A stretch of 64,000 nt of DNA from an uncultured bacterium (GTDB lineage: Bacteria > Fidelibacterota > Marinisomatia > Marinisomatales > UBA1611), in contig CALSPG010000001.1 in NCBI GenBank assembly GCA_943788175.1, positions 96,001 to 160,000 of the forward strand, in the 5' to 3' direction. The notes under the pieces are model-generated. The model saw only the letters and a program-made list of their open reading frames with translations. It was not told the DNA's origin and did not search any database. The first letter of the stretch is position 1. The number at the start of each line of letters is the position of its first letter. Below are positions 1 through 18,404 of this stretch, in pieces. Both the position numbers and the translations under genes were made by a program.

Positions 1-2939
1 TATTCCTTACCAGAGACCTTCTATTTTGTATGTTCTTCCGAATAATATAGGAAACCTTTTAGGGACAGTTGAAGTACTTATGGATTGGAAAAAAAGAATG
101 GGATATGAAGTAAACTATATATCTAGTTCTAATATTGTGAATAACTCTAATAACCTTAAAGATTATATAGAGACTGCTTACGAAGGTTGGGATAATCCCC
201 CAGAATATGTTACTATCGTAGGCGATGCTGAGGGTAGCTACGATATACCAACGCATTTTGAAAATTGGAGTGGTTACAATGGAGAAGGTGACCATCCTTA
301 TGCCACACTAGTTGGAAATGATTTATTCCCGGAATTATTTGTTGGTAGGCTTTCTTTTGATAGTCAAAGCCATTTACAGACCATTATAAGTAAAACTGTT
401 AATTATGAATCAAACCCCTATATGGGTGAAAATTGGTTTAAAAGAGCATGTTTAGTTGGAGACCCTTCTACTTCAGGCGTTTCATGCATTATTACAAATA
501 ATAATATAAAAGAAGTTCTTCAAAATTATGGATATGAAGATATAAGAACTGTTTTTTCTGGGGATTTTCCTAGTCAGATGACTAGTAATCTTAATGATGG
601 AGTAGGGTTTTTTAATTACAGAGGTTTTTATGGCGTAAGTGGCTATACGAATGATGACCCTGGCTTGTCAAATAATGGTTTTATGCTTCCAATTGCCACA
701 GTCATTACCTGTGGAACGGGTTCTTTTGGTACTGAAGAATCATTGTCCGAGTCGTTTTTAAGAGCTGGAACTGCTTCAAACCCAAGAGCTGCAGTTGCTT
801 GTATCGGTACTGCAACACTGGGTACGCATACGATGTTTAATAATATGGTTGATATGGGTTTTTATCATGGCGCTATTGTTGAAAATATAAACTCAGTTGG
901 TGGTGCTCTTATGGCCGGTAAACTCTGGCTTTCTAGAGCATACCCTACGAACCCTAATCAATATGTTTCTACTTTTACTCATTGGAACAGCCTTATGGGT
1001 GATGCCTCTCTTCAAATGTGGACAGAATATCCTGAAATGCTAAATGTATCGCATTTGTATTCTCTGACAAAAGGTACCAATTTCATCGATTTTTCGCTTA
1101 CTAATAGTGGTGGCAACCCTGTGCAAGATGCTTGGGTAACAATCTACAAAGAAGGCTCTGTTTTAGAGTCTGGTTATAGTGATTCCAATGGATCAATTCG
1201 ATTAATGATTCCAATTGTTCAGGAAGGCGAGATTCTTGTAACAGTTACTAAAAAAAATCATTACCCATATCAAAGCTCTTTTCAAATCTACAATCCAGGT
1301 GCCAGTGTGAATATTTTTGGTGATAACATATCCCTAATTGAAAATGGAACTGGTTCTTCAAATGGGAATGGAGATGGAGAAATAAATTCTGGCGAAGTAG
1401 TAGACCTGATTATTCCTGTATCGAACTATGGTAATGCAAATGCTTCTCAAATTAGTGGTACTCTTTCTTCAGAAAATTCTAATGTTACAATTACAAATGA
1501 TACATTTTTTTACGGAGACCTAACATCAGGAGATGTTGTTAGTAACGATTCATCTCCGTTTACATTTAGCGTAAATAACGATGTGCATGATAATTCAAAT
1601 GTTAAGCTGTTGCTTACACTTACCAATAGTAATGGTTATTTGTCTACAGGCTATTTGGAGTTTTCTGTCTCAGGCAAAAATATTTATGCATCGAATATTG
1701 ATGTTTCTGGCAGTAGTCAAGATGTCTTGTCAGCCGGAGAAATATCAAATGTTCATATTCAATTACATAATATTGGCTCCACTATAGCACAAAATATTAC
1801 AGGTCAAATAACCTCATCATCTGGTGCAATAGAGATTATTGATAATTCCGCTACTTGGTCATCAATCAATCCAGGTGCCTATAGCTCTAGCTCAAACAGT
1901 GGGGATTCATTTATTATTAGTGCTCAAGAAGATGTTATTCCTGGGACCATCGCAAATTTAATTGTATCTCTAAGTTCGGATGATGGATACTCAGCCTCTT
2001 CAGTTATTACGATCCAAATTGGTATTCCGTCAGAAAATGATCCATTGGGACCAGATGAATATGGTTATTATATATATGATAGCGGAGATATTGACTATCT
2101 TATTGCACCATCTTATGATTGGATTGAGATAGATGATAGGTATGATGGAAATGGTACGTATTTAAACTCCCTAAGTGATAATGGCGATAATGGAGATGAT
2201 GTCCAGACAGTTTAGCCTACCTTTTAATTTTAGATTTTATGGCCAAGAATATGAAAGTCTAAGTATTTGTTCAAATGGATGGATATCTTTTGGCGCAACT
2301 GATTTAAGCTCATTTAGAAATTATCCTCTGCCAGGAGCTGGGGGACCAGGAAAGATGGTCGCTGTTTTTTGGGATGATTTAAAATTAACAAATTCAGGAA
2401 GAGTTTATACTTGGTATGACGAAATTAATAAATTGTTTATAGTTCAATGGTCAAGAGTTCGTACTTTCCAAAATAATACTTCAGAAACATTTCAAGTGAT
2501 TTTAAAAGATCCTATGTATCACACTACTCCTACTGGTGATGGCGAAATAGTGATACAATATTTAGATTTCAATAATGATACTAATGGAAGCTATAGTTGG
2601 AGTCAAATTCATGGTAACTATTGCACTGTAGGTATTGAAGATCATACAATGAAACGAGGATTACAGTATACTTTTAATAATTCATATGCTGATGCAGCTA
2701 TGCCTTTATCAGATGGAACTGCGATTTTAATTACCACCCGTGGAAGTGAACTGCGTTTAGATGGTGATTTAAATACTGATGGAATGATTGATGTGAATGA
2801 TCTTCTTATTCTTATAGATCATATCGTTGTAGACCAAACAAATTTTAACCCATACCTAGCAGATATAAATTCTGATGGAATGGTGAATATTTTGGATATG
2901 GTAAGGCTTATTCAAATTGTAATGGGTTACGATCAGTAA
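1..2939 (+). CDS. Gingipain-like peptidase C25 family protein with Ig-like repeats, a NIDO-like domain and a C-terminal dockerin; 5'-truncated by the window, with one apparent frameshift at ~2211-2213
   Basis: C25 motifs (YVTIVGD, GDHPY, PELFVGRLS, VITCGTG, SLMGDASL). The frame is open back to base 2. Removing one T in 'cag aca gTTT agc cta cct' joins ORF 26..2215 to ORF 2175..2939 (DDVQTV-SLPFNFRFYG), matching the uninterrupted paralog at 14032. It ends in duplicated GDLNxDG..D / ADINxDG.VNILD dockerin repeats. Confidence 0.85.
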
Positions 2940-2960
2940 TTTTAACTGAGTCTTGCGGGT

Positions 2961-4145
2961 ATGCTAATTTCGCCCTTATTGATTCTTGGTTTTCTAGCTA
3001 CCCTTTTAATCATTGCCGGCCTACTAGAATTTAAATACCATCAAACAAGCTTATCCGGTATTCCAATTAGAATTCATGTAAACGGTACCAGAGGAAAATC
3101 AAGCGTCACTCGTCTTATAGCTGCAGGGTTAAGAGCTGGAGGAAAACGTACATTTGCCAAAACAACAGGCACGGCACCTAGAGTAATTGATTCTAAAGGA
3201 ATCGATAGAATTATCCATAGATTAAGAAAACCCTCTATTGGTGAGCAAGTAAGATTGCTTAAATATTTTTCTGATGAAAAACCTGATGTGGTTGTAATGG
3301 AATGTATGGCAGTTCAACCTCAATATCAGTGGATCTCTGAACATCAGATGGTAAAATCAGATATTGGGGTTATTACGAATGCAAGGCCAGATCACTTAGA
3401 TGAAATGGGGCCAACAGAAGTGGATGTTGTAAAATCATTATGTAATTCAATTCCTGTAGGTGGTGTTCTTGTAACGGCTGAAAAAAAACACAAAAAAATC
3501 ATTAAAAAAGTTACGTATGACAATAACTCTGATTTTATTTTATCAGATGAAAATTCAATTTCAAATGAGTATATAAACAATTTTAAATACATCGAGCACC
3601 CTCAAAACATAGCAATCGCATTGGATGTGTGTGAAAAAATTAGGAATTGATAGAGACACAGCAATAGGAGGTATGCACCAAGTTCAACCAGATTTAGGTG
3701 CTTTGATTGTTTGGAAATTAATTGGTCAAAAAGGTTCATTGCAATTCGTAAATGGAATGGCTGCAAATGACCCCGTATCGACATTGCAAATATGGAAATT
3801 TGTAATTGATAGGTATCCTACCAAAAGTGCAACGGCGGTATTTTTTAATTCAAGAGATGACCGCCCTATACGTACAAAACAAATGTTAGAACTCACGTTT
3901 GAAGAAATTCGACCTGAATATTTAATTGTCAGAGGTGATAAGATCGAAGCAAAAATAAACAAGCTTAAACACCACTCGCCTGAAACTATTGTTATAAATA
4001 TTCTCTATTGACGAGAAGCCTGATGTTGTTAGTAAAGCGATATTAAATTGCCTGATGATTCAATTATTTACGCAATTGGTAACCAAGTAGGAAGTTGGGC
4101 AAGAGATATTAGAAGATTTAGCCAGGAATAGAAGTAATTGGTTGA
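2961..4145 (+). CDS. capB: Poly-gamma-glutamate synthase CapB/PgsB (Mur-ligase fold), interrupted by several single-base indels
   Basis: N-terminal TM helix, then HVNGTRGKSSVTRLIAAGLR, KTTG, ECMAVQP, TNARPDHLDEMGP, AANDP and NSRDDR. The C-terminal 'IYAIGNQVG' motif is readable in another frame at ~4065-4092. Directly upstream of capC. Confidence 0.92.
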
Positions 4146-4582
4146 AATTAGCATTGGGTTAGGAATTATTCTAAGCTTAGTATTGTCAGAAGCTCTAGGC
4201 GTCACAGCTGGTGGGATTATTGTGCCAGGTTATATAGCTTTATTTTTACATCAACCAGTTCAGGATATTCTCAACTTTTTTTGTAGCTATTTTGGTTTTA
4301 GGAATAATAAAAATTTTAAGCAAAATTATGTTCTTATATGGAAAAAGGAGAATTGTACTTGCACTGATCCTTGGTTTTTTCTTCGGCTATTTATCTAGAA
4401 CGTTGTATGTTGATTCGGAAAGCATAAAAAGTGTTGCTGTTATAGGTAATATTATACCTGGCCTTATTGCAAATTGGATGGATAGACAAGGTGTGACGCG
4501 CACAATTTCAGTTGTTATTCTTACAGCTGTCATTGTAAAGCTGATGGTGATGATATTATTTGGAGGAGCAATCTTTGAATAA
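4138..4582 (+). CDS. capC: Poly-gamma-glutamate biosynthesis membrane protein CapC/PgsC; one apparent frameshift at ~4264
   Basis: GVTAGGIIVPGYIAL, LYGKRR and IGNIIPGLIANWMDRQG motifs. ORFs 4138..4398 and 4292..4582 join if one G is removed from 'cagGata'. Confidence 0.92.
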
Positions 4583-5729
4583 TTACAAACAAAATCCATT
4601 CATTCCTGCAATTCAAAAAACATCCACTCTCTTAATTTTGTCTCTTATAGCAATGGTTGCCTTTATAATTTCATTAAAGAGTACCATCATAGAGGTATCA
4701 TCTTCATACGATACGAAAGTTAAAGCTGCTTCTCTAATGAAAAAATCAATGAATGTATTGAAGTCTAATAGAATGGTTTCTAGTGTTTTTATTGATGATG
4801 AAAATGACCCGAATGAAACCGGATTAGTTGGAAGTCCATTCAGTCTGATAACTACTGACGAAGGTGATTTAGACGCGAAACTCACAACATTAGATCCAAA
4901 CTTTTCTGCAGGTATGGTCGAACTGATGGTTCAAGTCGGCATAGAAAAAAATGACACTGTAGCGGTCCTTTTAACTGGGTCTATGCCAGGTGGAAATATT
5001 GCAGTCCTTACTGCATTGAAAGCACTTGGCGCTTATTCTGTTGTCATTACATCTGTTGGAGCATCACAATGGGGTGCAAATCATATTGATTTTACTTGGC
5101 TTGATATGGAAAAAATACTTTATGAAGAAAATTTAATTCTAAATAGAAGTATAGCTGCATCCATTGGCGGACGAAATGATATGGGTAGATTACTTAGTCC
5201 TGAAGGAAGAAATATTATTAATAAAAATATTTCAAAGCATGGGTTACCAATAATTAAAAAAAGTAGATTGGCTGATAACATAAGTCATAGAATGAAACTT
5301 TTTAATAATATCGCGAAAATAGATAATTATAGTGCAATGATAAATGTCGGAGGTGGTGTAGCAAGCTTGGGTACAAGTTTTAATTCAAAATTACTTCCTG
5401 CAGGCATTGTAAATAGATCTGATGTCCAAAGTATTTCATTGCAGGACGGTGGAATAGAAGGTGTTTTATCAAAATTTTCAAAAAACGACATTCCGGTTTT
5501 ACATGTATTAAACATTAAATCATTAACAGAAAAACTTGGAATGCCTTTTGCTCCAATACCTGTTCCTGAGGTTGGTGTGGGTACTTTATATGCTGTTGAA
5601 AAATATAACGTATTTGTTGCCTTCGTCTGCTTAATCGTCTTATGTAGTGCAGTTTTTGTAGTTGGTTATCAAAGTAAAAAAGAAATAAAGGAGCATCTCA
5701 TAAATCATGAGCCAGATAGTTTACTATAA
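4575..5729 (+). CDS. pgsW: Poly-gamma-glutamate system protein (PgsW type)
   Basis: DPNETGLVG..S.ITT..G.L.AK.TT..PNF, TGSMPG, SVGASQWGAN and INVGGG motifs, with N- and C-terminal TM helices. Follows capBC. TTG start at 4575 with GGAGG at 4562-4566. Confidence 0.85.
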   Translation: MNNYKQNPFIPAIQKTSTLLILSLIAMVAFIISLKSTIIEVSSSYDTKVKAASLMKKSMNVLKSNRMVSSVFIDDENDPNETGLVGSPFSLITTDEGDLDAKLTTLDPNFSAGMVELMVQVGIEKNDTVAVLLTGSMPGGNIAVLTALKALGAYSVVITSVGASQWGANHIDFTWLDMEKILYEENLILNRSIAASIGGRNDMGRLLSPEGRNIINKNISKHGLPIIKKSRLADNISHRMKLFNNIAKIDNYSAMINVGGGVASLGTSFNSKLLPAGIVNRSDVQSISLQDGGIEGVLSKFSKNDIPVLHVLNIKSLTEKLGMPFAPIPVPEVGVGTLYAVEKYNVFVAFVCLIVLCSAVFVVGYQSKKEIKEHLINHEPDSLL

Positions 5730-6585
5730 GTTAATTTTTATCTCGTTGTTCTTTATTTGTGAATCTACTGCGTTTGCAAAATTATTGAGACCATCAAAGA
5801 ATCGAGACCAGAAAGAAATTCTTGTCATAAACTCAAAAAGAAGAGTTTATTATCCAATTAAACAAGAAGGTCTTGTTTATCAGATTAATGGCCCTGTAAG
5901 GACGGAATTTATTAGTAGGTATCCAGTACTAAAGAAAAAGAAAAGGAGTCACAGTTTTAACTATGTTATTGTACTTAACCAAAAAGACACCATTAACGTC
6001 AATCATCGATACAAAGTGCAATCTCCTGTGCGCTCTGTTCAGCACCCAAAACATAGATACACTTTTTCTGGAAACTATTTTATTAACCTGCCTAAAGGAA
6101 ACCATACGGTAGAAATTCTTCAAAATAAAGATTTAAAGTACCCTGTTCTTCTTCGGCTATTATCGAAAGAATTTGAAACCCCAAAGAAAGATCAAGAAAT
6201 ATTAGTTCCTATGGTTCATAAGAATAATGTGGATATTGAATTAGATGGAAAAAATCTAAAATATTTTGAATGTAGTAAAAATATACCTTTGCAGATAGAA
6301 GCATACGGTCCAAAGATCTTAAGAATTATTAGTAGATTAGAGTTTACAGAAAAAATGGGAGCACAGGAATCTTATAGAATTCACGTAAAAAGTGAAAAAA
6401 AAGTGGTTGGAACTTATTTTTTTAATACTGAAAGGTCTGGATCTTCAAAAATTAAAAATCGGTCAGATAAAGTACCTGGCAAATGGCGAAGTTGTGAAAT
6501 TAAAGTACCAAAAGGTAATCATAATTTTTCTATTGAAGTTTTTGATGAGGGAAAAACAGCTCTTACGCGTTTTATGTTATACTAA
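5707..6585 (+). CDS. Secreted, Lys/Arg-rich hypothetical protein with two internal repeats
   Basis: Signal peptide ending AFA. The pattern GP....ISR ... PKGNH occurs twice. Overlaps both neighbours. Confidence 0.7.
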   Translation: MSQIVYYKLIFISLFFICESTAFAKLLRPSKNRDQKEILVINSKRRVYYPIKQEGLVYQINGPVRTEFISRYPVLKKKKRSHSFNYVIVLNQKDTINVNHRYKVQSPVRSVQHPKHRYTFSGNYFINLPKGNHTVEILQNKDLKYPVLLRLLSKEFETPKKDQEILVPMVHKNNVDIELDGKNLKYFECSKNIPLQIEAYGPKILRIISRLEFTEKMGAQESYRIHVKSEKKVVGTYFFNTERSGSSKIKNRSDKVPGKWRSCEIKVPKGNHNFSIEVFDEGKTALTRFMLY

Positions 6586-7613
6586 TGCGATTTTTAATTA
6601 TACTTAAAATACTATATATTTTTTGCTCTGCTAACGGCTCAACGCCTATCGACTTAAGTTTGAGTTATCAAGGTGGGTACGATGATAATGTAATGAGATT
6701 TTCTAAAAAAGAAATTTCAGATGCTTCGTCTAATATTAAATACCTTGGTGGTTCAAAAACTTTTGATAGTTATATTAATAAAATTCAATTTGGTTTTAAT
6801 AAAACATTATATGCAAAAAATAACAAAGAGGTGCTTTATAATTCATCTGTGGCTTTGTCCGATTATGTCCATAATTCGAACAAAGACTATTGGTCAGGTA
6901 ACATATCTGTAAAATATAAATGGGGGTCATACCGAAATCTAAAATACTCTTTAAGACATCTTAATAGTTACTATTTACGTCATTATATTGATAGAGACTT
7001 ATCCTTAAATGAATTGAAATCATGCAGCTTCACAGATAACGATCAAAATGTGTCGATTTCAAATAGAATCAATAAGAGAAATTGGTATATCATTAGTTTT
7101 GGTTTTCTTCAAAGGTATTATGATAAACCATTCACAGAATTTGACTTAAATATCTATTATGCTAAAGTAAAGATAAATAAAAAAATAAAAAGATATGGTA
7201 CAATTTCTTTTCAAGTAAATCGAGGTTTCGCTGATAATGTGACTTTTACAAAAACTGGTATTTCAAGTGATTTTGACCGTTCATATGAATCTATTGAATG
7301 GTATATGCCTATAAAAATAAACAGCCCGGTACCTATGATTGAGAATTTTGGTTTTTCATTTAGACAAGAACTAAGATATTATAATGCAGAAGCTGTAAAT
7401 GATGTTTTACATGCAGGTAGAGATCACGTAGATAATAAATTGGACTTTTGGTTCAATAAGAGTCTAAAAGAAAATCTTGATGTCGTATTTAGTGTTCGTT
7501 TTCGATCAAGAGAAACAGGGTCATCATATAGCTGGGTTCGTGATCTAAAGAGTTTTAAACAAATGCAGTTATGGTGTAAAATTAAATGGGGTTTTTCCTA
7601 TGATAATTATTAA
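6585..7613 (+). CDS. Putative outer-membrane beta-barrel protein
   Basis: Signal peptide, GYDDNV near the N-terminus, alternating amphipathic strands rich in aromatic residues, and an aromatic C-terminus (KIKWGFSYDNY). Confidence 0.6.
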   Translation: MRFLIILKILYIFCSANGSTPIDLSLSYQGGYDDNVMRFSKKEISDASSNIKYLGGSKTFDSYINKIQFGFNKTLYAKNNKEVLYNSSVALSDYVHNSNKDYWSGNISVKYKWGSYRNLKYSLRHLNSYYLRHYIDRDLSLNELKSCSFTDNDQNVSISNRINKRNWYIISFGFLQRYYDKPFTEFDLNIYYAKVKINKKIKRYGTISFQVNRGFADNVTFTKTGISSDFDRSYESIEWYMPIKINSPVPMIENFGFSFRQELRYYNAEAVNDVLHAGRDHVDNKLDFWFNKSLKENLDVVFSVRFRSRETGSSYSWVRDLKSFKQMQLWCKIKWGFSYDNY

Positions 7614-8652
7614 AAAAGTTAATTTTTTATTAATAGTTCTATTGTTGTTCTCATGCATGGAACCAAATGATGAGGGTCTTTGGTCTGTTGATCAAATAAG
7701 TGTTTTTAATACCCAAGGATTCTGTAGAGGCGTTTCTGTCGAAGAAAATATAGCCTATATTGCCTCTGGGCAAGCTGGGGTCCAAGTTTGGAATTTAGAA
7801 ACTGGAGACGCATTGCATGAATATTTGGGTTATTCACAAGATGGCTCTTACATTGAATTTGATGATATATCAATTGTAAAAAGAGATGGAGCTAATAATT
7901 TAATATTCGTTACTGAATCAAATAAAAAAGTAAAAGTTTTCTTTTTTGATGATAGTAGTGATTTTGTTTATAGGAACGAAATCATGAGTGATCGCACAAA
8001 AGACTATGTTTCATTTCCAACTGCTGGAGGTGGTTTTACTATGTATGTTGCTGATAATGATGATGGTCTCAAATGGGGAACATATAGGTCAGATACTACA
8101 ACCATATTCAATCTTGAGATAATAAATTGGATGCCAACTGCTGGTGGAGAAATTTCTACGGATGGAAAGCCGTTAGGCATCGATAGTAATGGTGAAAATT
8201 TAGTAGCTATGGCGGTAGATCAGTTAGGTGTAGAATTTTACAATCTTATTTTTAACCAATCTATTGAAAATGCTGGAGGGGAACCTGTTTTTCTTTCCAG
8301 GTTTGACTTAGGTGGTAATGCAGAACAAGTAAAATTAGTCGATAACGGAGCATATATATCAGTAGATGATTTCGGAGCATATTTTATAGAAAAAGAGTCA
8401 ATTTTATCTGGTGATGGTGAAGCTATTCATTTTGCAGAAGGCCTCACGGTTGATCACATTTCTATCAAAGATGATATAGCAGTATTAAGCATTGGATCTA
8501 AAGGTATTGCTCTTTATGATATTTCTGATATCCATAATCCTAAAGCAAAAGGAATTTTTGATGTTGGTTACACATACAAAACTGAATTCTGGGATGAATA
8601 CATTTTAATTTGTACTAGATCAGGTTTAAAAACTGCAAAAATAAATATTTAA
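7600..8652 (+). CDS. Lipoprotein with LVIVD-like beta-propeller repeats
   Basis: Lipobox LLFSC. Repeats such as IAYIASGQAGVQVWNL and IAVLSIGSKGIALYDISDIHNP. Confidence 0.7.
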   Translation: MIIIKKVNFLLIVLLLFSCMEPNDEGLWSVDQISVFNTQGFCRGVSVEENIAYIASGQAGVQVWNLETGDALHEYLGYSQDGSYIEFDDISIVKRDGANNLIFVTESNKKVKVFFFDDSSDFVYRNEIMSDRTKDYVSFPTAGGGFTMYVADNDDGLKWGTYRSDTTTIFNLEIINWMPTAGGEISTDGKPLGIDSNGENLVAMAVDQLGVEFYNLIFNQSIENAGGEPVFLSRFDLGGNAEQVKLVDNGAYISVDDFGAYFIEKESILSGDGEAIHFAEGLTVDHISIKDDIAVLSIGSKGIALYDISDIHNPKAKGIFDVGYTYKTEFWDEYILICTRSGLKTAKINI

Positions 8653-8677
8653 CATTTCAACGGAGATTAACAAATCA

Positions 8678-11600
8678 ATGAAGATTCGAGTTTTATTATT
8701 TTTTCTTACAATTTTTTCTTTGAGAGCTGAACAATTCACTTTCGATAATGCATCTCCAATTAGGCAAGGTGTTCATGTCGAATGGTATCGAACAGTCGTT
8801 CCCTCTCTCAATGGCTCTGCCATTTTCGTGTGGTCAGATACTCGATTTGGTATGCGCAATGTATTTGCTCACAAAATAGATAAAAATGGAAACCTATTGT
8901 GGGGTGAGGCAGGGACAGTTGTTACGAATTTACCTGGGAGGCAGGAAGACCCTGTATCAATTGAAGACGGCAATGGTGGCGCGTTCATTGCTTGGGTTGA
9001 CTATAGATTTGATGACGCTGGCGATATTTTTATCCAGCATGTAAACAATGATGGTTCAATATTGATGGATCCTAATGGAGTGGCATTAGCTCAGTTTCAA
9101 GGTCAGCAGATTTCCATAAACATGTGCACAGATAGTCTTGGTGGCGTTTTTGTAACTTGGCAAGATAAACGCGGAGGCGTTGATGATGATATCTATGGTA
9201 CTCACGTTGATAGCAATTATAATATCATTGAACCCGGAATAGGTGTTCCTATTGTAGTGCAGGGTGGAACTCAATCAGCCAAAAGCATTGAGTATGCAGG
9301 AAACAATGAGGCTTTTATTTGTTGGTCAGATTCTAGGCAAGGTGAAAATATTGATATTTACGGACAAAGATTAGATATGACTATGTCACCACTGTTTCAA
9401 GAAGATGGTATTCCTATTGCTAGTACTTCCGGGTTGGAAACTAGGCCACGTACAACCTTTGTAAATAATACAACTTCAATTGTGACTTGGAAGTTTGGCG
9501 ATGAAAATGGCAGAATATTATTTCAGTTTGTTGACCAAAATGGACTTGTTTTTACTAACTCAAAACCTGTTTCTGAGTATGATGCTATTCAAACTGGGCC
9601 AAGGCTAAAAAGAGGTAGTCAGGGCGACGTATTTTTGTCTTGGAAAGATTTACGTTTTGATCCTGTAGATGGTGATATTTTTATGCAAAAAATTAATGAA
9701 GATGGTGATGTGGAATGGGGCGATGGTATTCAGGTTGATTTAACAGACGGTGTTAATTTTAGCGGAAGATTTTCTGCAAATAATGTTGGCGGATTTGATA
9801 TATTTTGGGAGAAAGGTGTTTTTCCAAATGTTGATATCTTGTTTCAAAGTTTTAACTCGAACGGTCAGCCTCAGAGTGATATGCCAATTATTGTTACTAG
9901 TGATGAGGGTTACCAGTTCGCGCCCAATATCATTAGTGGTTCAAGTGATAGTGTATTTGTAGTTTATGCTGATCAAGGAAATGGTAGCATAGATTTAAAA
10001 GTTAATTACTACAAAGGTGTCAATTCGCTTTTCGAAACTGGTGGATTGCTTGCCGTTAAAGGGTTAGATGGTGATATTAAATATAATGTTGGATACCCAA
10101 TTGATGATGAAAAAATAGTTTTAGTTTGGGAAGATAATAGAGCAAGTAAGAAAATTTATGCAAATGTCATTAGCGCAGGAGAATTATCGCACTTAAATGG
10201 AAAACAACTCTCATTTTCTGACAACTCTTCAACTGAAATTGATTTGTCCAGTCCGTTTATGATAAACGCATCTAATTATGTTTATACTGCAACCTTCGAT
10301 GCCACCGGAACACCGAAAAAGATTAGAATAAATAAATTAAATGCTAACCTGGAAAATGTTTGGGATCAAAGTGGCGTTTCCCTCAATCCTGAGAATGATC
10401 AACGGAACGCTCATTTGGTAGATCTCGGGATGCAGGGCGTTGGTGTTTTTTGGTCAGAGAGTAGATCTTTTTTAAGTGGTTTTGATATATTTTTTCAATC
10501 GCTAAATAATAATGGAGAAAGTCAGCTGAATGCCGGGGGTATTGCCGTAGCAGAGTCAAATGGAGATGATTATATCCAAAGTATACTGCCAACGCCTGAT
10601 GGAAATTTTCTTATTTTTTGGGTAGAAGAAGTTTGGCCAGCATCAAGATTAAAGTATACTAAAGTAGATGCAGGTGGGTCTACATCTATTGGTTGGCCTC
10701 CAAATGGCTATAGTCTTAGTAATCAAACTATAGGGGCAAATAACTTATCTGTTAAATCAATATCTGAAACCAGCGGTGTGCTTGCAGTTTGGAATCAAGA
10801 GGGGAATTTTAGTGATATTTATGCCCAAAAAATTAATTGGAATGGTCAAACAGAATGGGACGATAACGGTGTGGCAATAAGTATAGAGGACAATGATCAA
10901 TCTGCGATATCTTTTGATATTGATCAACCAGGTCAAACAGCATTTATTGTATGGGAGGATTATCGTAATGGTACTGATTATAACGTTGTTGGTAGAGAGT
11001 TAAACCTTGTTTCAGGTGCTATGAATCAAATCGATGTCTTTTTTACATCTGATACAACCAACCAACAAAAGCCGCTGGTGAAATCAGTTGCGGCAGGAGA
11101 ATATATTATTGTCTGGGAGGATGGTAGAGGATATTACAATGATGACCCGCTTTTAATAAATGGTGTTGATCTTTATGGTTCAGCGTATGTTGTTGGCTCT
11201 GGAAGAACAACAGGTATAGATGGCATTCCAATATCTGTTGAATATCATGGTCAAAAAAATCCTAGGATTACTAAATATAGTGGCGAAGACTATCTTCTTC
11301 ATTGGATTGATCTTAGAAGTTCAGGGAAGGAGGACCTTGCTAATTATTATGCTAAAATTATTAGAAGGACAGGTATTCTCAGCTCTAAAAATGAAGAATT
11401 TGATATAAATATTCCAAATAGTTTTGAGATTCAATCTGTATACCCAAATCCATTTAATGGTAAAGTTAAATTTGATTTTACCATCGACACTCCTCAATTA
11501 GTGACATTCAATGTCTATGACATTACTGGGAAAATGATTGTTGATGAATTAATAATAGGCGGTGCAAGAGGTTATCATCAAATTTCTTGGGATGGAAAAA

Positions 11601-11695
11601 ATAAATATGGTGATTTGGTTTCAAGTGGAGTTTATTATTACACATTTACACTGCAAGAGAAGATTGTAAAAGGTAAACTGACTTATTTAAAGTAA
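8678..11695 (+). CDS. Secreted repeat (probable beta-propeller) protein with a T9SS type-A/FlgD-Ig C-terminal domain
   Basis: Signal peptide. Many W.D.R...DI(Y/F).Q..(D/N)..G repeats. C-terminal YPNPFN...VYDITG...WDGKN..G..VSSGVY...KLTYLK. Confidence 0.8.
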   Translation: MKIRVLLFFLTIFSLRAEQFTFDNASPIRQGVHVEWYRTVVPSLNGSAIFVWSDTRFGMRNVFAHKIDKNGNLLWGEAGTVVTNLPGRQEDPVSIEDGNGGAFIAWVDYRFDDAGDIFIQHVNNDGSILMDPNGVALAQFQGQQISINMCTDSLGGVFVTWQDKRGGVDDDIYGTHVDSNYNIIEPGIGVPIVVQGGTQSAKSIEYAGNNEAFICWSDSRQGENIDIYGQRLDMTMSPLFQEDGIPIASTSGLETRPRTTFVNNTTSIVTWKFGDENGRILFQFVDQNGLVFTNSKPVSEYDAIQTGPRLKRGSQGDVFLSWKDLRFDPVDGDIFMQKINEDGDVEWGDGIQVDLTDGVNFSGRFSANNVGGFDIFWEKGVFPNVDILFQSFNSNGQPQSDMPIIVTSDEGYQFAPNIISGSSDSVFVVYADQGNGSIDLKVNYYKGVNSLFETGGLLAVKGLDGDIKYNVGYPIDDEKIVLVWEDNRASKKIYANVISAGELSHLNGKQLSFSDNSSTEIDLSSPFMINASNYVYTATFDATGTPKKIRINKLNANLENVWDQSGVSLNPENDQRNAHLVDLGMQGVGVFWSESRSFLSGFDIFFQSLNNNGESQLNAGGIAVAESNGDDYIQSILPTPDGNFLIFWVEEVWPASRLKYTKVDAGGSTSIGWPPNGYSLSNQTIGANNLSVKSISETSGVLAVWNQEGNFSDIYAQKINWNGQTEWDDNGVAISIEDNDQSAISFDIDQPGQTAFIVWEDYRNGTDYNVVGRELNLVSGAMNQIDVFFTSDTTNQQKPLVKSVAAGEYIIVWEDGRGYYNDDPLLINGVDLYGSAYVVGSGRTTGIDGIPISVEYHGQKNPRITKYSGEDYLLHWIDLRSSGKEDLANYYAKIIRRTGILSSKNEEFDINIPNSFEIQSVYPNPFNGKVKFDFTIDTPQLVTFNVYDITGKMIVDELIIGGARGYHQISWDGKNKYGDLVSSGVYYYTFTLQEKIVKGKLTYLK

Positions 11696-11725
11696 GTTAT
11701 TAAGTAAATTGTATTTATTGCTATT

Positions 11726-14053
11726 ATGAATGTATTTAAGAGTATAATTCTGTACATATTTTTATGGGGATTTGTTTCTTCGCAGTCCCTAGATGAAAGA
11801 TATCACTCTTATCCTGAAATTTTATCATTAATTGATTCATTGTCGAACGTCGAAGAATACCAAAGCATACTTTTAGTTGATACTATTGGATATTCTTCTT
11901 TAGAAAATATTCCAATTGTTGCTGTTAAAATATCAGATAATGTTAACATTAAAGAAGATGAGCCTAGAGTATTGTTTGTCGGTCAGGTTCATGCTGAAGA
12001 AGTATTAGGAATTGAAGTAATCCTAAGTTTAATGAATGATCTTTTGGACCCAAGACCTGAAGAATATAATCACATGAATATTTTAAAATCCTATTTAGAA
12101 GTTTGGTTGATTCCATCTGCAAATCCGGATGGTCTTGGAGTGGTGCATGAAGGTCTTGATTTAACATTTAGAAAAAATAAGACTGATTTTTCCCCAGGAG
12201 GTCTTGACCCTAATGGTATATTCGATTTTGAACCATCGATTGGTAATGATGTAGATGGTGTCGATTTGAATAGAAATTTTGGATTTAATTGGACATTTGG
12301 TGATACTTTTTTAGTTTTTGACGAGACAGATTATGGTTCTCATTATGATTATTATCGAGGGCCTGCACCATTTTCTGAGAGCGAGGCAGTCGCAATTCGT
12401 GACTTAGCACTTCAGCATGATTTTGTTTTTTCAATTGTATGGCATAGTTCTAGGTCAGGTAGATTATCTGAGAAGGTTTTTACATCCTGGAATTGGGAGG
12501 GTGCTAAGCCTTCACCAGATCTAGATTTGATGAAAGGAGTTGCAGACACGTTCTCTGGTTTGATGGAGAAAGAGGATGGTACGGGTAGTTATCTATCAGT
12601 CTTAAGTGGATCAAGGAATGGTAAACTCCATGATTGGTTTTATAGAGAAACCGGTTGTATTCAGTATTTAGTGGAGTGTGGAACTTCAAACCTACAGCCA
12701 GATAGCTTATTAATTGAAAGTACAGTTAGTAGAACGAAACCTGCGATGATTTATCTAATGGATAGAACCATTGGTTACAATACGGATGCTGGGCAAGCTA
12801 CTGGTATCATTTATGATGCAAATACAAATGCCCCTATTCATGGGGTAGAAATTAAAATCGAAGAACACTCAGGTTCTGTATTAAAACCGAGGTTAACAAA
12901 TGAATTTGGGCGTTACAGACGTATTTTAGATGCAGGAACGTATCATCTAAATATCTCAAAAAAAGGATATCTTCCTATTCGGCAATCAATTACAACAAAT
13001 AACAGTGGCATCACTGAAGCAGATTTTTCCCTAATCCAGGCGCCTTTACATTCAGTAAGAATAGATTTAGATAATGGACTGACTGGGAATCTACCATACG
13101 AAGTAAAGTGTCTTGTAATTAGTGAGAACGATACAGATACTCTATTGTTAGATGATTCATACCTTGACTTAATATTGCCTGAGGGTCTTTATAAATTGGT
13201 TATTAATCCATCTATTGGGACACCTTGGGAAAAGAAGTTGTATATTGATCAGAATTATAATTTTGTTGTACCAATGGGTACTGCAACTAGTTATGATCTT
13301 AGCCAGAATTGGAATGAGTGGTCAGCCGATCAAGATAGTTGGCACATCGTAAATAATAATTTATTATCACAGTCAAATATCTATTATGACAATAACGATT
13401 CGCTTCAAATATTACAAAAAATAAGTTCTCCACTTTATGATATCTCTGGAAAAAATAGAGTTACATTTAAAATAGTTCACCAATATGAGACAGAATGGGA
13501 TCATGATTCAGTAGGTGTTTCAATTTATGATGCTAACGAAACTTTATTATATAGAGATGGTTGGAGTGGCCATAAGTGGGGTAATTATGTTTCTAATTAC
13601 TTTAGTATTACTAATAATCAAGGGTATTATGACTCATTGAGATTGGTGTTATGGTTTAAAACTGACCAAACAGTTAATTATCGTGGATGGGATATAATTA
13701 GTTTCACAATGTATGCATTGGATGATGCATTTTTGTCAGTTGAAGAAATTTCATCTAATACTCTGCCTCAGATTAATTTTAATTTTCAAGGTGTTTTCCC
13801 CAACCCCTCGTTTGGGAAAATGAGTTTAGATGTCCGATCTTGGCAAGGTGGTTCTGCGAAGGTAAAAGTGTATAATATATTAGGTCAACAATTGTATGAA
13901 AGAAAAACTGAGGTTTTAAGAAAAGGTAGTTTCTTTCTTAATTTAGACTTTAGAGATTTTAACTATGCTCCAGTAAGTTCTGGAATGTTCTTTGTTGAAA
14001 TTGAATCAAATAATCAGAAAGTAATTCGAAAATGCATCATATTAAAAAATTAG
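11726..14053 (+). CDS. Secreted M14 zinc carboxypeptidase with a carboxypeptidase regulatory domain and a T9SS-like CTD
   Basis: HAEE (HxxE), NPDG, RKN, GVDLNRNF, PFSESE, VWHS and VECG motifs. C-terminal FPNP...VYNILGQ...SSGMFF. Confidence 0.88.
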   Translation: MNVFKSIILYIFLWGFVSSQSLDERYHSYPEILSLIDSLSNVEEYQSILLVDTIGYSSLENIPIVAVKISDNVNIKEDEPRVLFVGQVHAEEVLGIEVILSLMNDLLDPRPEEYNHMNILKSYLEVWLIPSANPDGLGVVHEGLDLTFRKNKTDFSPGGLDPNGIFDFEPSIGNDVDGVDLNRNFGFNWTFGDTFLVFDETDYGSHYDYYRGPAPFSESEAVAIRDLALQHDFVFSIVWHSSRSGRLSEKVFTSWNWEGAKPSPDLDLMKGVADTFSGLMEKEDGTGSYLSVLSGSRNGKLHDWFYRETGCIQYLVECGTSNLQPDSLLIESTVSRTKPAMIYLMDRTIGYNTDAGQATGIIYDANTNAPIHGVEIKIEEHSGSVLKPRLTNEFGRYRRILDAGTYHLNISKKGYLPIRQSITTNNSGITEADFSLIQAPLHSVRIDLDNGLTGNLPYEVKCLVISENDTDTLLLDDSYLDLILPEGLYKLVINPSIGTPWEKKLYIDQNYNFVVPMGTATSYDLSQNWNEWSADQDSWHIVNNNLLSQSNIYYDNNDSLQILQKISSPLYDISGKNRVTFKIVHQYETEWDHDSVGVSIYDANETLLYRDGWSGHKWGNYVSNYFSITNNQGYYDSLRLVLWFKTDQTVNYRGWDIISFTMYALDDAFLSVEEISSNTLPQINFNFQGVFPNPSFGKMSLDVRSWQGGSAKVKVYNILGQQLYERKTEVLRKGSFFLNLDFRDFNYAPVSSGMFFVEIESNNQKVIRKCIILKN

Positions 14054-17000
14054 TCTTTTTTATTTTCTTTATAAGCCTTTCATTATCAGGCGATAGGCAC
14101 TTTAGAGGTATGAATAAAAATGAAGTCCTACGATCAAAAATCCCAATTAGTTTTAGACATCAAGTAATGCAGGGATATGATGTCTTACCTCAACAACTTT
14201 CTGTAAATAGAGGATCATATTTGATAATTGCTAGAGAAGGGTTAGTGCAACAAGGATACGTTGAAGTTTTCGCAGAGTTTAAAAAAACACAAGGTTTTAA
14301 TGTTTATATTGTTTCCCTCTCAGATTCTGAATTAGATGTAAATAGTGTCCAAAATCATATTACGGAGCACTTTACAGCAGACCCAATGCTTGAATATGTT
14401 CTGCTTATTGGAGATGTTGATGGTTTCGCAGAAATACCGTCATATTACTACGGACCAGAAAATGATGTAACAGATCAAAAATACACCCATATTTTAGGAG
14501 ACGATTACATCCCAGACTTGTTTATTGGAAGAATTTCTATAGACTCGGCTTATGAATTAGCTGTGATAATGTTAAAAACAATTGCCTATGCTAGAGAGCC
14601 TCTTGCTTATGACCAAAATTGGCTTGATCGAGCACTTGTAGTAGCTGGCAACTATGCTAATTCTCCTCCAATTCCGATAACTCCCAAGTGGACATCTTCT
14701 TGGCTTCGAGATGAGTTATTGAACTTAGGATATAACTCAGTGGATACAGTTTTCTATCCTCCTATTCAGCAAGGTGCTCCTTATATTACAGAAATAATCA
14801 ATAATGGTGTAGGTTTAGTTAATTATAGGGGCTGGGGAGATGCAAATGGCTGGCATTATCCAGAATTTCATGCTGATGATGTAAATGGCTTAAATAATGG
14901 TTGGTTAACACCTGTTTTTATGAGTTACGTTTGCAACTCAAATGATTTTGCTAATAGTGTAGACCCGTGTTTTGCTGAAGCTATATTAAGGGGAGGTACT
15001 ACAAGTAATCCAAAAGGTGGTGTCGCTTTTATAGGTCCATCCGATTTACACACTAGTACTAAATATAATAATGTAATAAATGCTTCAATGTATGATGCGA
15101 TGATTAATTATGATGTTCTCGAGTTGGGCCCTGCTTTGATGGCTGGGCAGTTTGGGCTTGTTAAAGAATTTCCAAACCAGGACGAACCGGGAGAAGCTCA
15201 AGAATTTTATTTTCACGTTTATAATATTTTAGGTGATCCTTCGCTCCAAGTTTACTTAGATACTCCTGATACTTTTCTTATCGAGGCAGATGAAGTTTCG
15301 TTCAAAGACGGTTACTTAAACGTTAAGGTTACATCATCAGACGGTACACCAGTTAAAGAAACTGTTATAGCTGTTATAAAAGATGGCCAGATTTTATCTA
15401 AAGGGATTACTTCAGATAGTGGATATTATATTGATAATATAAATATAGATAACCAAAGTAATATTGATATTTATGCAAATAAAGCTGGCTTCATTCAGGG
15501 GCATATCTCTAAATCAATAAATAATGAAAATAGTTCAGGTTTAAGAATAAAAAAAATATACTCATCTAATGAACTTGAATCTGGTATTAATTCTTTTGGA
15601 AGTGTAATTGATTTAAATATTCAATTTTTAAATTCTTCTTTTAACACTTTTGAAAGTAGTGATGCTGTAATTAATTTTTCTCAAGGGTTAACACCGTCGA
15701 GTTCTTCTTTTTCATTACCTAGAATATCAAGTGGTGATTCGGCTATTGTCTCCGTAAGTAGTTTGCAGATTCATGGTAGCGGCAGCGAGTATTACATAGA
15801 TGGCACTATCCTAAATCAAAATGGGGATGAATTATTTAATATTGGATTGAAAATCGAACCTGTAAATATTTTAGCTTCTATTGTTAATCAAGATGTATCT
15901 GTTTTATCTGAATTTAGTCCTCAAATTGAAATAAATAATTACTCTGCATCAAAGTATGAAGATGTAAAAATAATACTTCAAACTTTATCGGAAGGTTCTG
16001 AAATTATAAATAATGGCAACGTGAGTTTGAGTCATAATGTTGAGCCCTTTTCTAGCGAAGTGTTTCAAACAGATTACAGTGTTAATGTTGGAAACATATC
16101 TTCTGGAAGTACAGTGACAATTTTGCTTCAATTAAAAAAATTAGATTCAACTTTTTTTAGTCAAAAGTTAGAGTTTGAAATTGCTTCTGAATTTCAAAAT
16201 TTCCCTGTTTCTCCTAACGATTACGGTTATTGGGCATATGACAATACAGATACTGAATATGAACAAAAGCCCTCTTTTGATTGGATCGAACTAGACCCTT
16301 CCTTTGGTGGCGATGGCGCAACTGAATATTTATTGGATGATGATGATCACGTTGATGTTCAACTTCCTTTTCAAGTTAAATATCATGGTGAATACTATAA
16401 TGAATTGACGATTAATTCAAATGGTTGGGCATCTTTGGTTCCATGTGATATTGATTATTTTTGGAACATGTCTATCCCCTCATTTATGAGCCCTAAAGCG
16501 ATGCTAGCTCCATTTTGGGATGATCTTGAGGTTGTAGGTGAAGATTGGATTAGAGTGTACACAAAGCATGATGCTCTTCAAGGGAAGTTTATCATTGAAT
16601 GGTCAAGGGCTTTAAATGGTTATGATGAATTAACAAAAGAAACTTTTGAAATCATTATTTATGATACAAATTCAATGTCAACAGCATCGGGTGACAATGT
16701 GATTGAGTTTCAATATTTAGAAATAGATGATGTAGATGTTACCAAAAATTATTCTACGGTCGGTATACAATCCCCTCAAAACAATGATGGTTTGTCTATG
16801 GTTTTTAACAATAATTATACTCCAGGCGCAACGAGCTTAGTTGATAGTACTGTTATCAGGTTCACAACTGACGCACCAGATTCATACATATCACCATTAG
16901 GTGTAGATGAAAAGATTTTGATTCCTGAAAACTTTATTATCGGTAAGTTATATCCGAATCCATTCAATCCTAGAGTAAATATTGATTTAAAAGTAGTGGA

Positions 17001-17205
17001 AAACGGTAAAGTTACTATATCTGTTTTTGATATGAGGGGAAGAGTTGTTGATGAGATTCATTCAGGGATATTAGTTTCTGGAAATCATCATTTTTCATGG
17101 GATGGAAAAACATACAACAATCAACTGGCTAGTTCAGGTGCCTATTTTTTGGTTGTCTCAAATGGAACAAACAAGCAATTCAAAAAAATGTTGCTTTTAA
17201 AATAA
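14032..17205 (+). CDS. Second gingipain-like peptidase C25 family protein, with a NIDO-like domain and a T9SS type-A/FlgD-Ig CTD
   Basis: YVLLIGDVD, TDQKY, PDLFIGRIS, YVCNSNDF and YNILGDPSL motifs. C-terminal YPNPFN...WDGK...ASSGAY...KMLLLK. Confidence 0.88.
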   Translation: MHHIKKLVFFIFFISLSLSGDRHFRGMNKNEVLRSKIPISFRHQVMQGYDVLPQQLSVNRGSYLIIAREGLVQQGYVEVFAEFKKTQGFNVYIVSLSDSELDVNSVQNHITEHFTADPMLEYVLLIGDVDGFAEIPSYYYGPENDVTDQKYTHILGDDYIPDLFIGRISIDSAYELAVIMLKTIAYAREPLAYDQNWLDRALVVAGNYANSPPIPITPKWTSSWLRDELLNLGYNSVDTVFYPPIQQGAPYITEIINNGVGLVNYRGWGDANGWHYPEFHADDVNGLNNGWLTPVFMSYVCNSNDFANSVDPCFAEAILRGGTTSNPKGGVAFIGPSDLHTSTKYNNVINASMYDAMINYDVLELGPALMAGQFGLVKEFPNQDEPGEAQEFYFHVYNILGDPSLQVYLDTPDTFLIEADEVSFKDGYLNVKVTSSDGTPVKETVIAVIKDGQILSKGITSDSGYYIDNINIDNQSNIDIYANKAGFIQGHISKSINNENSSGLRIKKIYSSNELESGINSFGSVIDLNIQFLNSSFNTFESSDAVINFSQGLTPSSSSFSLPRISSGDSAIVSVSSLQIHGSGSEYYIDGTILNQNGDELFNIGLKIEPVNILASIVNQDVSVLSEFSPQIEINNYSASKYEDVKIILQTLSEGSEIINNGNVSLSHNVEPFSSEVFQTDYSVNVGNISSGSTVTILLQLKKLDSTFFSQKLEFEIASEFQNFPVSPNDYGYWAYDNTDTEYEQKPSFDWIELDPSFGGDGATEYLLDDDDHVDVQLPFQVKYHGEYYNELTINSNGWASLVPCDIDYFWNMSIPSFMSPKAMLAPFWDDLEVVGEDWIRVYTKHDALQGKFIIEWSRALNGYDELTKETFEIIIYDTNSMSTASGDNVIEFQYLEIDDVDVTKNYSTVGIQSPQNNDGLSMVFNNNYTPGATSLVDSTVIRFTTDAPDSYISPLGVDEKILIPENFIIGKLYPNPFNPRVNIDLKVVENGKVTISVFDMRGRVVDEIHSGILVSGNHHFSWDGKTYNNQLASSGAYFLVVSNGTNKQFKKMLLLK

Positions 17206-17215
17206 GAAATTAATC

Positions 17216-17470
17216 ATGATAAATAATAGCTCTGCAATTACAATATATTCAACTTCTTGGTGCGGTCCTTGCGCAAGTGCGAAAAGACTACTTAAAGAAA
17301 AGGGGTTTTCCTTTGATGAAGTAGATATTGAAGAAAAAGGAATGACGCGTGAGGATCTTTATGAAAAAACTGGCGGGCGTACAGTTCCTCAAATAGTTGT
17401 TGATGGAAAAACAATCGGTGGTTACGATAACTTATTAGAGTTAGAATCAGATGGAATGTTGATAGTTTGA
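17216..17470 (+). CDS. Glutaredoxin (GrxC-like)
   Basis: WCGPC, TVPQI and IGGYD motifs; 84 aa. Confidence 0.9.
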   Translation: MINNSSAITIYSTSWCGPCASAKRLLKEKGFSFDEVDIEEKGMTREDLYEKTGGRTVPQIVVDGKTIGGYDNLLELESDGMLIV

Positions 17471-18404
17471 TAGCTGATTATTTAAATAGGCTAAGGGTTT
17501 CAATCATTTTTGGAACCCTTTTTTTATGCCTAAGTTGTGTTAGTCAAGCTCCAACCGTATGGTTTTTGAGAGATTTGCAGTCGCTTGACGCCAATATAAT
17601 GAATACAGTCCAGTGGTTAAAGATTGAAAAAAGCAATTTTAAATTTTTGAATAAATCTATTAAGAAGAAGTTAAATCTTTTTAGAAAAACTAATTTTTTA
17701 GTATTTCAAAAAATTGAAATAGAAATCAATAGTATTGAAAAAAATATAAAAAATATTGAGGCAAACCTCACAAAGCAAAAAAAATTGGCTAGACGAATAA
17801 AAAAAAGACCAAAACTAAAAATATTTGAGGCCTATGATAACAAAGAGACTAAAAGGCTTCCATTTCTTGGAAAAGAAAAGGAAACTGGTTTAAAGAATAG
17901 TAAATCAAAAACGGTTTTAAAAATTTTAGAGTCTTTGGCAAAAAACAGTTCTTTAATCATTGTAAATCAAGCGGCTTATAATAGCTCCTTAAATAACCTA
18001 ATTAAGTTTTTTAAGAAAGAAAAATACGACCTTGTTTTTATAAGGAAAGAAATAGAAGAATATAAATACACTATCAAAGAGTTAACTATTCAGCGAAAAC
18101 AACAAAATATTCTTTTGGAGAAATTAATTTTCAAGCTAAATGATGCTCTTCTTGTTAGTAAAAAATCTTCTTATACTTTAAACCTTTTAGATATAAGTCA
18201 AAATATTCAAAACTATAATAATAAGATGGATAAATTTGAATATTTTGTTAATAACTTAGTTGATATTGGTGGTAAAGAGTGCCGCGGGTTAGTTTATTTA
18301 AAAAAAATGGCCATAAAAAAGAATATCAAAAAAAATATGAGATGGGTCTCATTGACTATAAAACTACCTTGAGTGAAATACCAAAGTTAATTTCATCAAT
18401 TTAG
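17467..18404 (+). CDS. Basic coiled-coil hypothetical protein, possibly a lipoprotein; probable indel in the A-run at 18300-18307
   Basis: Lipobox-like LCLSC and a helical Lys-rich sequence. One added A extends the frame (NGHKKEYQKKYEMG...LISSI) to a TAG at 18402-18404, which abuts the convergent gene's stop. Confidence 0.55.

Follow-up and report, generated by a model that had tools for sequence, protein, structure and literature searches.

We analysed a 64,000-nucleotide stretch of DNA from an uncultured bacterium of the order Marinisomatales (GenBank assembly GCA_943788175.1, contig CALSPG010000001.1, positions 96,001 to 160,000; hereafter the window), in which a poly-gamma-glutamate (PGA) synthase, CapB-CapC-PgsW, is encoded in one block with a basic secreted protein (X), an outer-membrane beta-barrel (Y), a lipoprotein (Z), a repeat protein (P), an M14 carboxypeptidase and two cysteine enzymes of the C25 family (C25a and C25b). 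We found that the core capB-capC-pgsW-X-Y is conserved across many diderm phyla and that the C25 enzymes linked to it share a rewired active site, here called the RG type (RG-C25). We propose, as a reading that in our judgement stands evenly between right and wrong, that the block is a synthase-coupled PGA export and surface-fastening system of diderms in which an RG-C25 replaces CapD. The proposal draws on observed family membership, linkage, gene fusions, co-loss and active-site substitutions and on predicted folds, from which we infer the identity of the polymer, the direction of transport and the C25 chemistry.

Conservation of the block across diderm phyla

The genome carrying the window comprises 2.27 Mb in 12 contigs and is 92% complete; those close homologues that have names belong to Marinimicrobia. 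pgsW was detected in 49 of 61 relatives, and all 20 loci fetched from relatives at the order level contained capB-capC-pgsW-X-Y-Z-P, with C25a directly upstream in 19 and both M14 and C25b in 15. Gene counts in loci are based on six-frame reading, genomes and loci that are kin are not independent, and a gene missing from a metagenome-assembled genome (MAG) is no proof of its absence. Across Marinisomatota, 82 of 201 genomes contained pgsW, and the X-Y-Z module was present in 35 of 40 further loci, X being undetected in one (L092). C25a lay downstream of Z in nine of these (families f23, f28 and f31), and the flanks varied by group. The remaining five loci contained no X, Y or Z and carried genes for gamma-glutamyltranspeptidase (GGT) and AstE/AspA.

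A scan of GTDB genomes returned at least 549 confirmed stretches, of which the best 80 were kept; these came from records titled Bacteroidota, Ignavibacteria, Cloacimonadota, Zixiibacteriota, Eisenbacteria, Acidobacteriota, Krumholzibacteria, Fermentibacteria, Fibrobacteraceae and others. The counts among the loci of these best 80 with enough flanking sequence were 71 of 72 for X, 67 of 68 for Y, 44 of 62 for Z, 44 of 65 for a C25, 4 of 51 for P and 4 of 37 for M14; those for X are biased because the ranking used a PgsW-X fusion query. P was found in Marinisomatota and Cloacimonadota. An unbiased sample of Bacteroidota contained pgsW in 8 of 301 genomes; three of the pgsW loci had X-Y-Z and an RG-C25, one had X-Y alone, and the rest, together with a second locus of genome G231, had neither X nor Y. 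No cultured carrier of the block turned up, all names being those of MAGs.

Gene content was counted in the 101 loci flanked on each side by 5.5 kb or more. X or Y was present in 96 of them, and these 96 contained Z in 82 cases, an RG-C25 in 76, and GGT and AstE in none; Z and RG-C25 were both present or both absent in 88. The ten classifiable loci without X and Y, in contrast, carried GGT in eight, AstE in all ten and RG-C25 in none. A minimal capBC-pgsW-X-Y block, without Z and RG-C25, was seen in 13 of the 96. The results showed three grades of organisation: capB-capC-pgsW with GGT/AstE; capB-capC-pgsW-X-Y; and RG-C25 with capB-capC-pgsW-X-Y-Z. The window belongs to the third grade and adds P, M14 and C25b as lineage extras. 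The first-pass annotation, made from the sequence of the window, had read the ten genes as a Gram-negative PGA (or protein-polyglutamylation) system with its own outer-membrane exit route, to be refuted if the peptidase and barrel genes were not syntenic with capBC-pgsW in other genomes. This test of synteny did not refute the reading, which is partly supported: Y, X, Z and a C25 keep company with capBC-pgsW in different phyla, even where the gene order has been rearranged. The conserved unit is smaller than the ten genes, given the low cross-phylum counts of P and M14 and the existence of minimal loci.

The loci without X, Y and Z (L070:6011-13775, L071:160-9330, L060, L075, L076 and L213-L217) carry GGT, AstE/AspA and a racemase-like gene, and sometimes genes for DUF6305, DctM, FGase-CTD or AAT-CTD (CTD, C-terminal domain).

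A rewired active site in the linked C25 enzymes

Alignment to RgpB placed N-Y-R-G-F of C25a opposite the gingipain N-Y-T-G-H, with the cysteine kept. The gingipains of the block had been called atypical, and they proved to share one specific change: all 74 cluster-linked C25s, from several phyla, read Y-R-G-x in place of Y-T-G-H. The nucleophilic Cys was visible in all 74 rows (72 were caught by a regular expression). At the column of RgpB His211, Glu occurred in 28 rows, Trp in 25, Tyr in 14, Phe in 4 and Leu in 1, and the two unparsed rows read Y-R-G-W by alignment. No Asp was present in the RgpB Asp163 column of the 74 rows, a region that is gappy. A downstream T-[H/S/D]-T motif was shared, and its variation (THT 49, TST 9, SHT 5, TDT 5) ruled out an invariant substitute His. 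The genome of the window holds four C25s, and both unlinked paralogues keep G-H. A quick tree of 89 rows placed the 69 RG rows on one branch together with one unclassified row (SH-aLRT 94); for this tree most Bacteroidota rows had been removed at random, leaving 8, and L112 (masked), L173, L174 and L175 were dropped.

Both C25s of the window contain the C25 domain PF01364. The PorU model NF033707 matched neither of them, nor C25a of the related genome G003, and a Bacteroidales homologue (L107) scored 74 against the cut-off of 420. Judged by these residues and models, RG-C25s are neither active-dyad gingipains nor PorU. In RgpB, Thr209 is described as the base of the S1 pocket and Asp163 as the anchor of the P1 Arg (PMC9559808), and the gingipain His as assisting deacylation (PMC10882967). 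The substitutions in RG-C25 suggest a charge-reversed S1 pocket suited to glutamate and impaired hydrolysis.

An RG profile matched 84 of the 201 Marinisomatota genomes. Both RG-C25 and pgsW were found in 78, pgsW alone in 4, RG-C25 alone in 6 and neither in 113. Three of the four genomes with pgsW alone have GGT-type loci, which G114 resembles; among the six with RG-C25 alone, two matches were weak (near 1e-31), the G004 sequence is cut at a contig end, G101 is fragmented, and G082 and G122 are unexplained. Since some C25 was detected in 179 of the 201 genomes, the link to pgsW is specific to the RG type. In Cloacimonadota, where 93 of 101 genomes contained pgsW, both were found in 90, pgsW alone in 3, RG-C25 alone in 2 and neither in 6, often unlinked; genomes G577 and G633 gave 20 and 15 RG-profile matches. 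Strong matches were obtained in 3 of 301 Bacteroidota, with at most 11 candidates scored per genome, and all three have X-Y-Z loci; four other Bacteroidota gave weak matches, and those with a readable motif were of the G-H type.

X and Y accompany pgsW

X and Y were detected almost only together with pgsW. In Bacteroidota, X was found in 4 of 301 genomes, every time beside pgsW, and in Marinisomatota Y was found in 79 of 201 genomes, 78 of them pgsW-positive; the other was the fragmented G101, in which Y adjoins an RG-C25. Fusions of X with Y (P0174, L151, L133, L135 and L167) and of PgsW with X (P0241, in three records, L135 and L168) were also observed.

X was predicted to fold into two jelly-roll domains (predicted local distance difference test score, pLDDT, 86), and its best natural structure matches were carbohydrate-binding modules (CBMs), with generic Z-scores of about 8-9. 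Clustering of X sequences at 50% identity gave 524 clusters; among 106 full-length representatives, 91% had a pI above 9. Y was predicted to be a 14-stranded barrel (pLDDT 89) closest to CymA (Z-score 23.3, root-mean-square deviation 3.3, 288 residues aligned) and OmpG (Z-score 21.3). Nine columns contained at least 80% Arg/Lys among 55 Y orthologs, and the C-terminal residue was Tyr, Phe or Trp in 82 of 123 homologues. In an Atlas search, the clusters matching X all lacked names; for Y there were leads to BBP2_2 and SlipAM, each on under half of the cluster members.

Layout of the block and the synthase genes

The features of the block are listed in Table 1. As the first-pass annotation had stated, the block holds all ten genes in one orientation, either overlapping or separated by at most 30 bp. 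Its family assignments were upheld by Pfam and NCBIfam matches to PgsB, PgsC, PgsW, two C25s, M14, CTDs and a dockerin, and its description of X and Y as basic agrees with their pI values of 9.9 and 9.4.

Table 1. Features of the PGA synthase block in the window
Feature	Position	Strand	Remarks
C25a, RG-type C25 clan-CD cysteine enzyme	1..2939	+	Propeptide, Ig/NIDO-like domains, C-terminal dockerin
capB/pgsB, poly-gamma-glutamate synthase, N-terminal membrane anchor	2961..4145	+	End approximate
capC/pgsC, membrane subunit	4138..4582	+	Split by assembly indel
pgsW (TIGR04332)	4560..5729	+	Hydrophobic segments at both ends; putative periplasmic body
X, basic secreted protein, two predicted jelly-roll (CBM-like) domains	5707..6585	+	Proposed periplasmic guide
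Y, predicted 14-stranded outer-membrane beta-barrel (CymA/OmpG-like), conserved Arg/Lys	6585..7613	+	Proposed exit channel
Z, acidic lipoprotein, lipobox LFSC	7600..8652	+	LVIVD-repeat propeller in homologues
P, repeat (probable propeller) protein with a CTD of type IX secretion system (T9SS) kind	8678..11695	+	Single copy; accessory
M14 zinc carboxypeptidase with CTD, carboxypeptidase T-like	11726..14053	+	Accessory
C25b, second RG-type C25, CTD	14032..17205	+	Accessory copy

The part of CapB in the window that is N-terminal scored 292.8 bits against TIGR04012 (PgsB; cut-off 222.7), and the intact ortholog of G003 scored 417 bits. The two capC halves scored 49 and 66 bits against TIGR04011 (PgsC), and the intact G003 ortholog scored 123 bits (cut-off 96). 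PgsW, which adjoins capBC, matched TIGR04332 with 290 bits (cut-off 100); neither PgsW nor P had a convincing PDB relative by sequence.

C25a, which starts 667 bases before the window and is broken at 2211, capB and capC are each read as two open reading frames (ORFs) in this assembly. The same 7 indels are missing from all four sequencing runs compared, and relatives have intact ORFs of 1203, 393 and 147 aa for these genes; the splits are therefore assembly errors, and real frameshifts or pseudogenes were ruled out.

The cluster had been reported to contain neither capA nor capD, which we confirmed: a search of the genome, 92% complete as noted above, yielded no CapA (PF09587), and a CapD-like GGT was present in none of the 96 X/Y loci. 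CapA is said to resemble the epimerase MslH (PMC8179263). Because of this likeness and the absence of CapA, the polymer may, by analogy, be a homochiral L-glutamate homopolymer. A CapA (PGA_cap) domain does occur inside four X-Y-Z loci (L211:4627-7662, L210:18185-20000, L114 and L170); in L211, the only one of the four to be scanned over its whole length, PKD and a T9SS CTD are fused to it, giving a putative secreted epimerase-like protein.

Accessory and neighbouring genes

The CTD model TIGR04183 scored above its cut-off on P, M14 and C25b, and C25a has a dockerin instead. M14 keeps its zinc ligands and catalytic Glu. The genome contains 84 CTD-like ORFs and the T9SS parts SprA_N and several PorV-family genes, among the components searched for. 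In L061-L064, L084 and L158, from several Marinisomatota families, P, M14 and C25b bear a dockerin in place of the CTD, and the genome of the window (at C8:83301 and C7:291948, among others) has 7 dockerin matches and 2 short cohesin ORFs. These results suggest that the dockerin is an alternative surface-sorting tag.

A membrane acyltransferase resembling HGSNAT was found in 31 of the 96 X/Y loci, mostly after Z (for example L107:14343-15479, L123:14446-15558 and L210:6894-8108), and is often followed by a 290-420 aa protein of no known family; acylation of the polymer or of its acceptor is a possible role for the acyltransferase. The Z protein of L133:13585-15990 carries a fused FGE-sulfatase-like domain, with a match to PorK/GldK that is weak, and Z proteins of comparable length are found in L135, L136, L138 and L167.

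Upstream, a type IV pilus-like cluster (C1:80348-95320) ends 12 bp before C25a and contains, by sequence motifs, pilA, pilT, pilM, a secretin gene, pilB, pilC and a prepilin peptidase gene; pilC also looks frameshifted in this assembly. A special link to the pilus was rejected in favour of general synteny, the arrangement being seen within the order of the host and not in other classes or phyla. Downstream, the co-oriented run continues with a glutaredoxin gene and a basic 301 aa ORF (17467-18372, + strand), which evolves fast among relatives and had no Pfam or NCBIfam match. Convergent with the cluster is a gene for an MXAN_6640-family HExxH metalloprotease with a CTD (18405-20105, - strand), whose position is kept in close families. 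A promoter scan was at chance level (82 matches, 85 in shuffles), and terminator-like matches (15, against 8) lay mostly within ORFs and were not used.

Proposed mechanism and alternative readings

In the proposed export and fastening system, CapB and CapC, identified by family membership, would polymerise glutamate with ATP at the inner membrane, and PgsW, which hydropathy suggests is anchored at both ends, would take the chain on the periplasmic side. The basic X would steer the polyanion to the arginine-bearing Y, through which it would leave the cell. At the surface an RG-C25, exported via a CTD or held by a dockerin, would act in the role of CapD: the Arg at the S1 base and the loss of Asp163 would allow a glutamyl P1 to be accepted, the Cys would form an acyl-enzyme and, with the His lost, the chain would preferentially be passed to an amine acceptor that may lie on or close to Z. 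In Marinisomatota, M14 might trim chain ends and P might bind or scaffold, both as accessories. The product is very probably a PGA-type polymer. X-Y is its likely export route, and it is similarly likely that RG-C25 acts on the polymer; that it does so as a transpeptidase falls a little short of an even chance. In support of an RG-C25 in the position of CapD, GGT occurs in none of the 96 X/Y loci and in eight of the ten X/Y-less ones, and RG-C25 in none of the latter.

A number of observations weigh against this proposal. The single GGT of the genome lies on another contig. No general base was identified, the alternative His not being invariant, so the enzyme may be inactive. A minimal system can do without RG-C25, since 13 of 96 loci have neither it nor Z and genomes G323 and G233 gave no RG match, and the 15-20 RG paralogues reached in some genomes, many unlinked, are more than one pathway step needs. 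The best matches of Y are uptake channels, with export barrels scoring lower (Z-scores of 14.8 for PgaA, 13.0-13.4 for BcsC and 11.1 for AlgE), and its 55 orthologs have nine conserved acidic columns besides the nine basic ones. The match of X to the cellulose-synthase B subunit BcsB (Z-score 8.1) is within the generic jelly-roll range, the cross-phylum X counts carry the ranking bias given above, and the PgsW-X fusion P0241 retains a signal-like segment before X, which makes it weaker evidence. Contigs from RNA libraries (runs X15 and X16) cover all 30 bins, but their flat depth and records of up to 71 kb indicate that they are likely DNA, and they are thus uninformative on co-transcription.

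The loss of the catalytic His without an invariant substitute would also suit a tethering module, in which X-Y export is kept and RG-C25 binds PGA, or holds it as a long-lived acyl adduct on its Cys, thereby attaching both itself and the passenger domains it carries to the coat and building a protein-PGA surface layer. The paralogues, at most 15-20 per genome, of very different lengths, many unlinked and almost only in pgsW genomes, are consistent with such modules, as are the separate canonical G-H C25s and the 84 CTD-like ORFs of the genome. We nevertheless consider tethering unlikely, as an RG copy directly upstream of capB in several phyla and the lack of GGT in the loci suit a pathway enzyme, and RG-C25 retains its propeptide. 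Transport might also run inwards, with RG-C25 and M14 cutting surface PGA, Y-X importing the oligomers and PGA leaving by another way. The nearest folds of Y, which are oligosaccharide uptake channels, the intact catalytic residues of M14 and the catabolic-looking genes (GGT, AstE and racemase) of X/Y-less loci fit such salvage. X and Y, however, track the synthase and not the peptidases, as 13 of 96 loci contain them but neither C25 nor M14; moreover, X is fused to PgsW and the loss of the His disfavours hydrolysis, and we regard release and salvage as improbable.

Alternatively, CapBC-PgsW might glutamylate one particular carrier, be it a lipid, a lipoprotein or Z, for which Y would be a Slam-like translocon. 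The SlipAM lead for Y (19% of cluster members carry SlipAM), and the presence, among 96 loci, of a lipoprotein after the barrel in 82 and of a membrane acyltransferase in 31 point in this direction. Yet Y is present without Z, PgsB and PgsC pass equivalog cut-offs, and a DAPI (4',6-diamidino-2-phenylindole)-stained matrix around Cloacimonadota has been read as PGA (10.1101/2025.11.11.687785), which together make a dedicated carrier quite improbable. Finally, capBC-pgsW could be an ordinary operon, its neighbouring genes being retained through general synteny in a CTD-rich genome. That the run continues into pilus genes and a glutaredoxin gene, and that the genome has so many CTD-like ORFs, would agree with this, and for P, M14 and C25b this account may be right. 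In the case of X, Y, Z and C25a it is largely refuted by cross-phylum linkage, rearrangements that preserve the set, fusions, co-loss and the shared RG signature, and as an account of the whole block it is highly improbable.

Put at its fullest, the export and fastening proposal would mean that many FCB-group (Fibrobacterota, Chlorobiota and Bacteroidota) and other diderms coat themselves in PGA through a dedicated trans-envelope channel, CapBC-PgsW-X-Y, and that the His-less RG-C25, which is not related to CapD, is a gamma-glutamyl transpeptidase joining the polymer covalently to the surface and to secreted proteins, among them the enzyme itself. That both parts hold together seems to us rather doubtful; if true, PGA would be a protein-anchoring scaffold, as anionic lipopolysaccharide (A-LPS) is for PorU in Porphyromonas.

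The export of full-length PGA chains is described as incompletely understood even in Bacillus in a 2026 review (PMC13721041). We found no description of an outer-membrane route for PGA, or of this block, in the literature searched, which covered few subscription journals. The block provides concrete candidate genes for such a route and predicts a new C25 chemistry, with acidic-P1 specificity in the absence of a catalytic His. It bears on common marine Marinisomatota, with pgsW in 82 of 201 sampled genomes, and on almost every sampled member of the Cloacimonadota (93 of 101), and is relevant to cell surfaces, particle and floc formation, and gamma-PGA secretion from Gram-negative production hosts.

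Comparison with known systems

With the gingipains RgpB and Kgp and with PorU (we take PG0026 to be PorU), the RG-C25s have in common the C25 fold, the propeptide, the nucleophilic Cys and the CTD. PorU provides a precedent for transpeptidation by a C25 (PMC4560394). Compared with RgpB, His211 is replaced by Phe, Trp, Tyr, Glu or Leu and Thr209 by Arg, and the Asp163 column contains no Asp.

With the synthase-dependent secretion systems for cellulose (BcsABC), poly-N-acetylglucosamine (PNAG; PgaABCD) and alginate, the block shares an inner-membrane synthase, a periplasmic guide and an outer-membrane barrel in one operon, and guide-barrel fusions, here X-Y, are a further likeness. It differs in its putative polyamide product, its predicted 14-stranded CymA/OmpG-like barrel and its basic guide of two predicted jelly rolls, and a domain search of the block found no tetratricopeptide repeat (TPR) domain. 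The block would work like a synthase-dependent secretion system, and its matches to the export parts BcsB, BcsC, PgaA and AlgE are of a generic fold kind, all scoring below the top ones.

The PgsB and PgsC equivalogs are shared with Bacillus PgsBCA(E)/CapBCADE. In B. anthracis, the GGT CapD is described as anchoring the polymer (PMC13721041, PMC3815933). Here, instead of CapA and an in-cluster GGT, PgsW, X, Y, Z and RG-C25 are found in a diderm host; with neither CapA nor an in-operon CapD, the block is not a Bacillus-type Cap/Pgs system. A further close match is to capB-capC-pgsW (TIGR04332) operons, including the three-gene operon of Cloacimonadota described as 'CapB, CapC, PgsF' (10.1101/2025.11.11.687785), whose PgsF is presumably PgsW, so that the same three core genes are present. 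The periplasmic protein, barrel, lipoprotein and C25 are not named in the available text of that source, and, in the portions available, papers on Cloacimonadota treat PGA operons and dockerin-bearing C25s separately (10.1101/2025.11.11.687785, PMC8542988). Set beside these systems, the block is a broadly conserved and, as far as we searched, unpublished variant of PGA systems.

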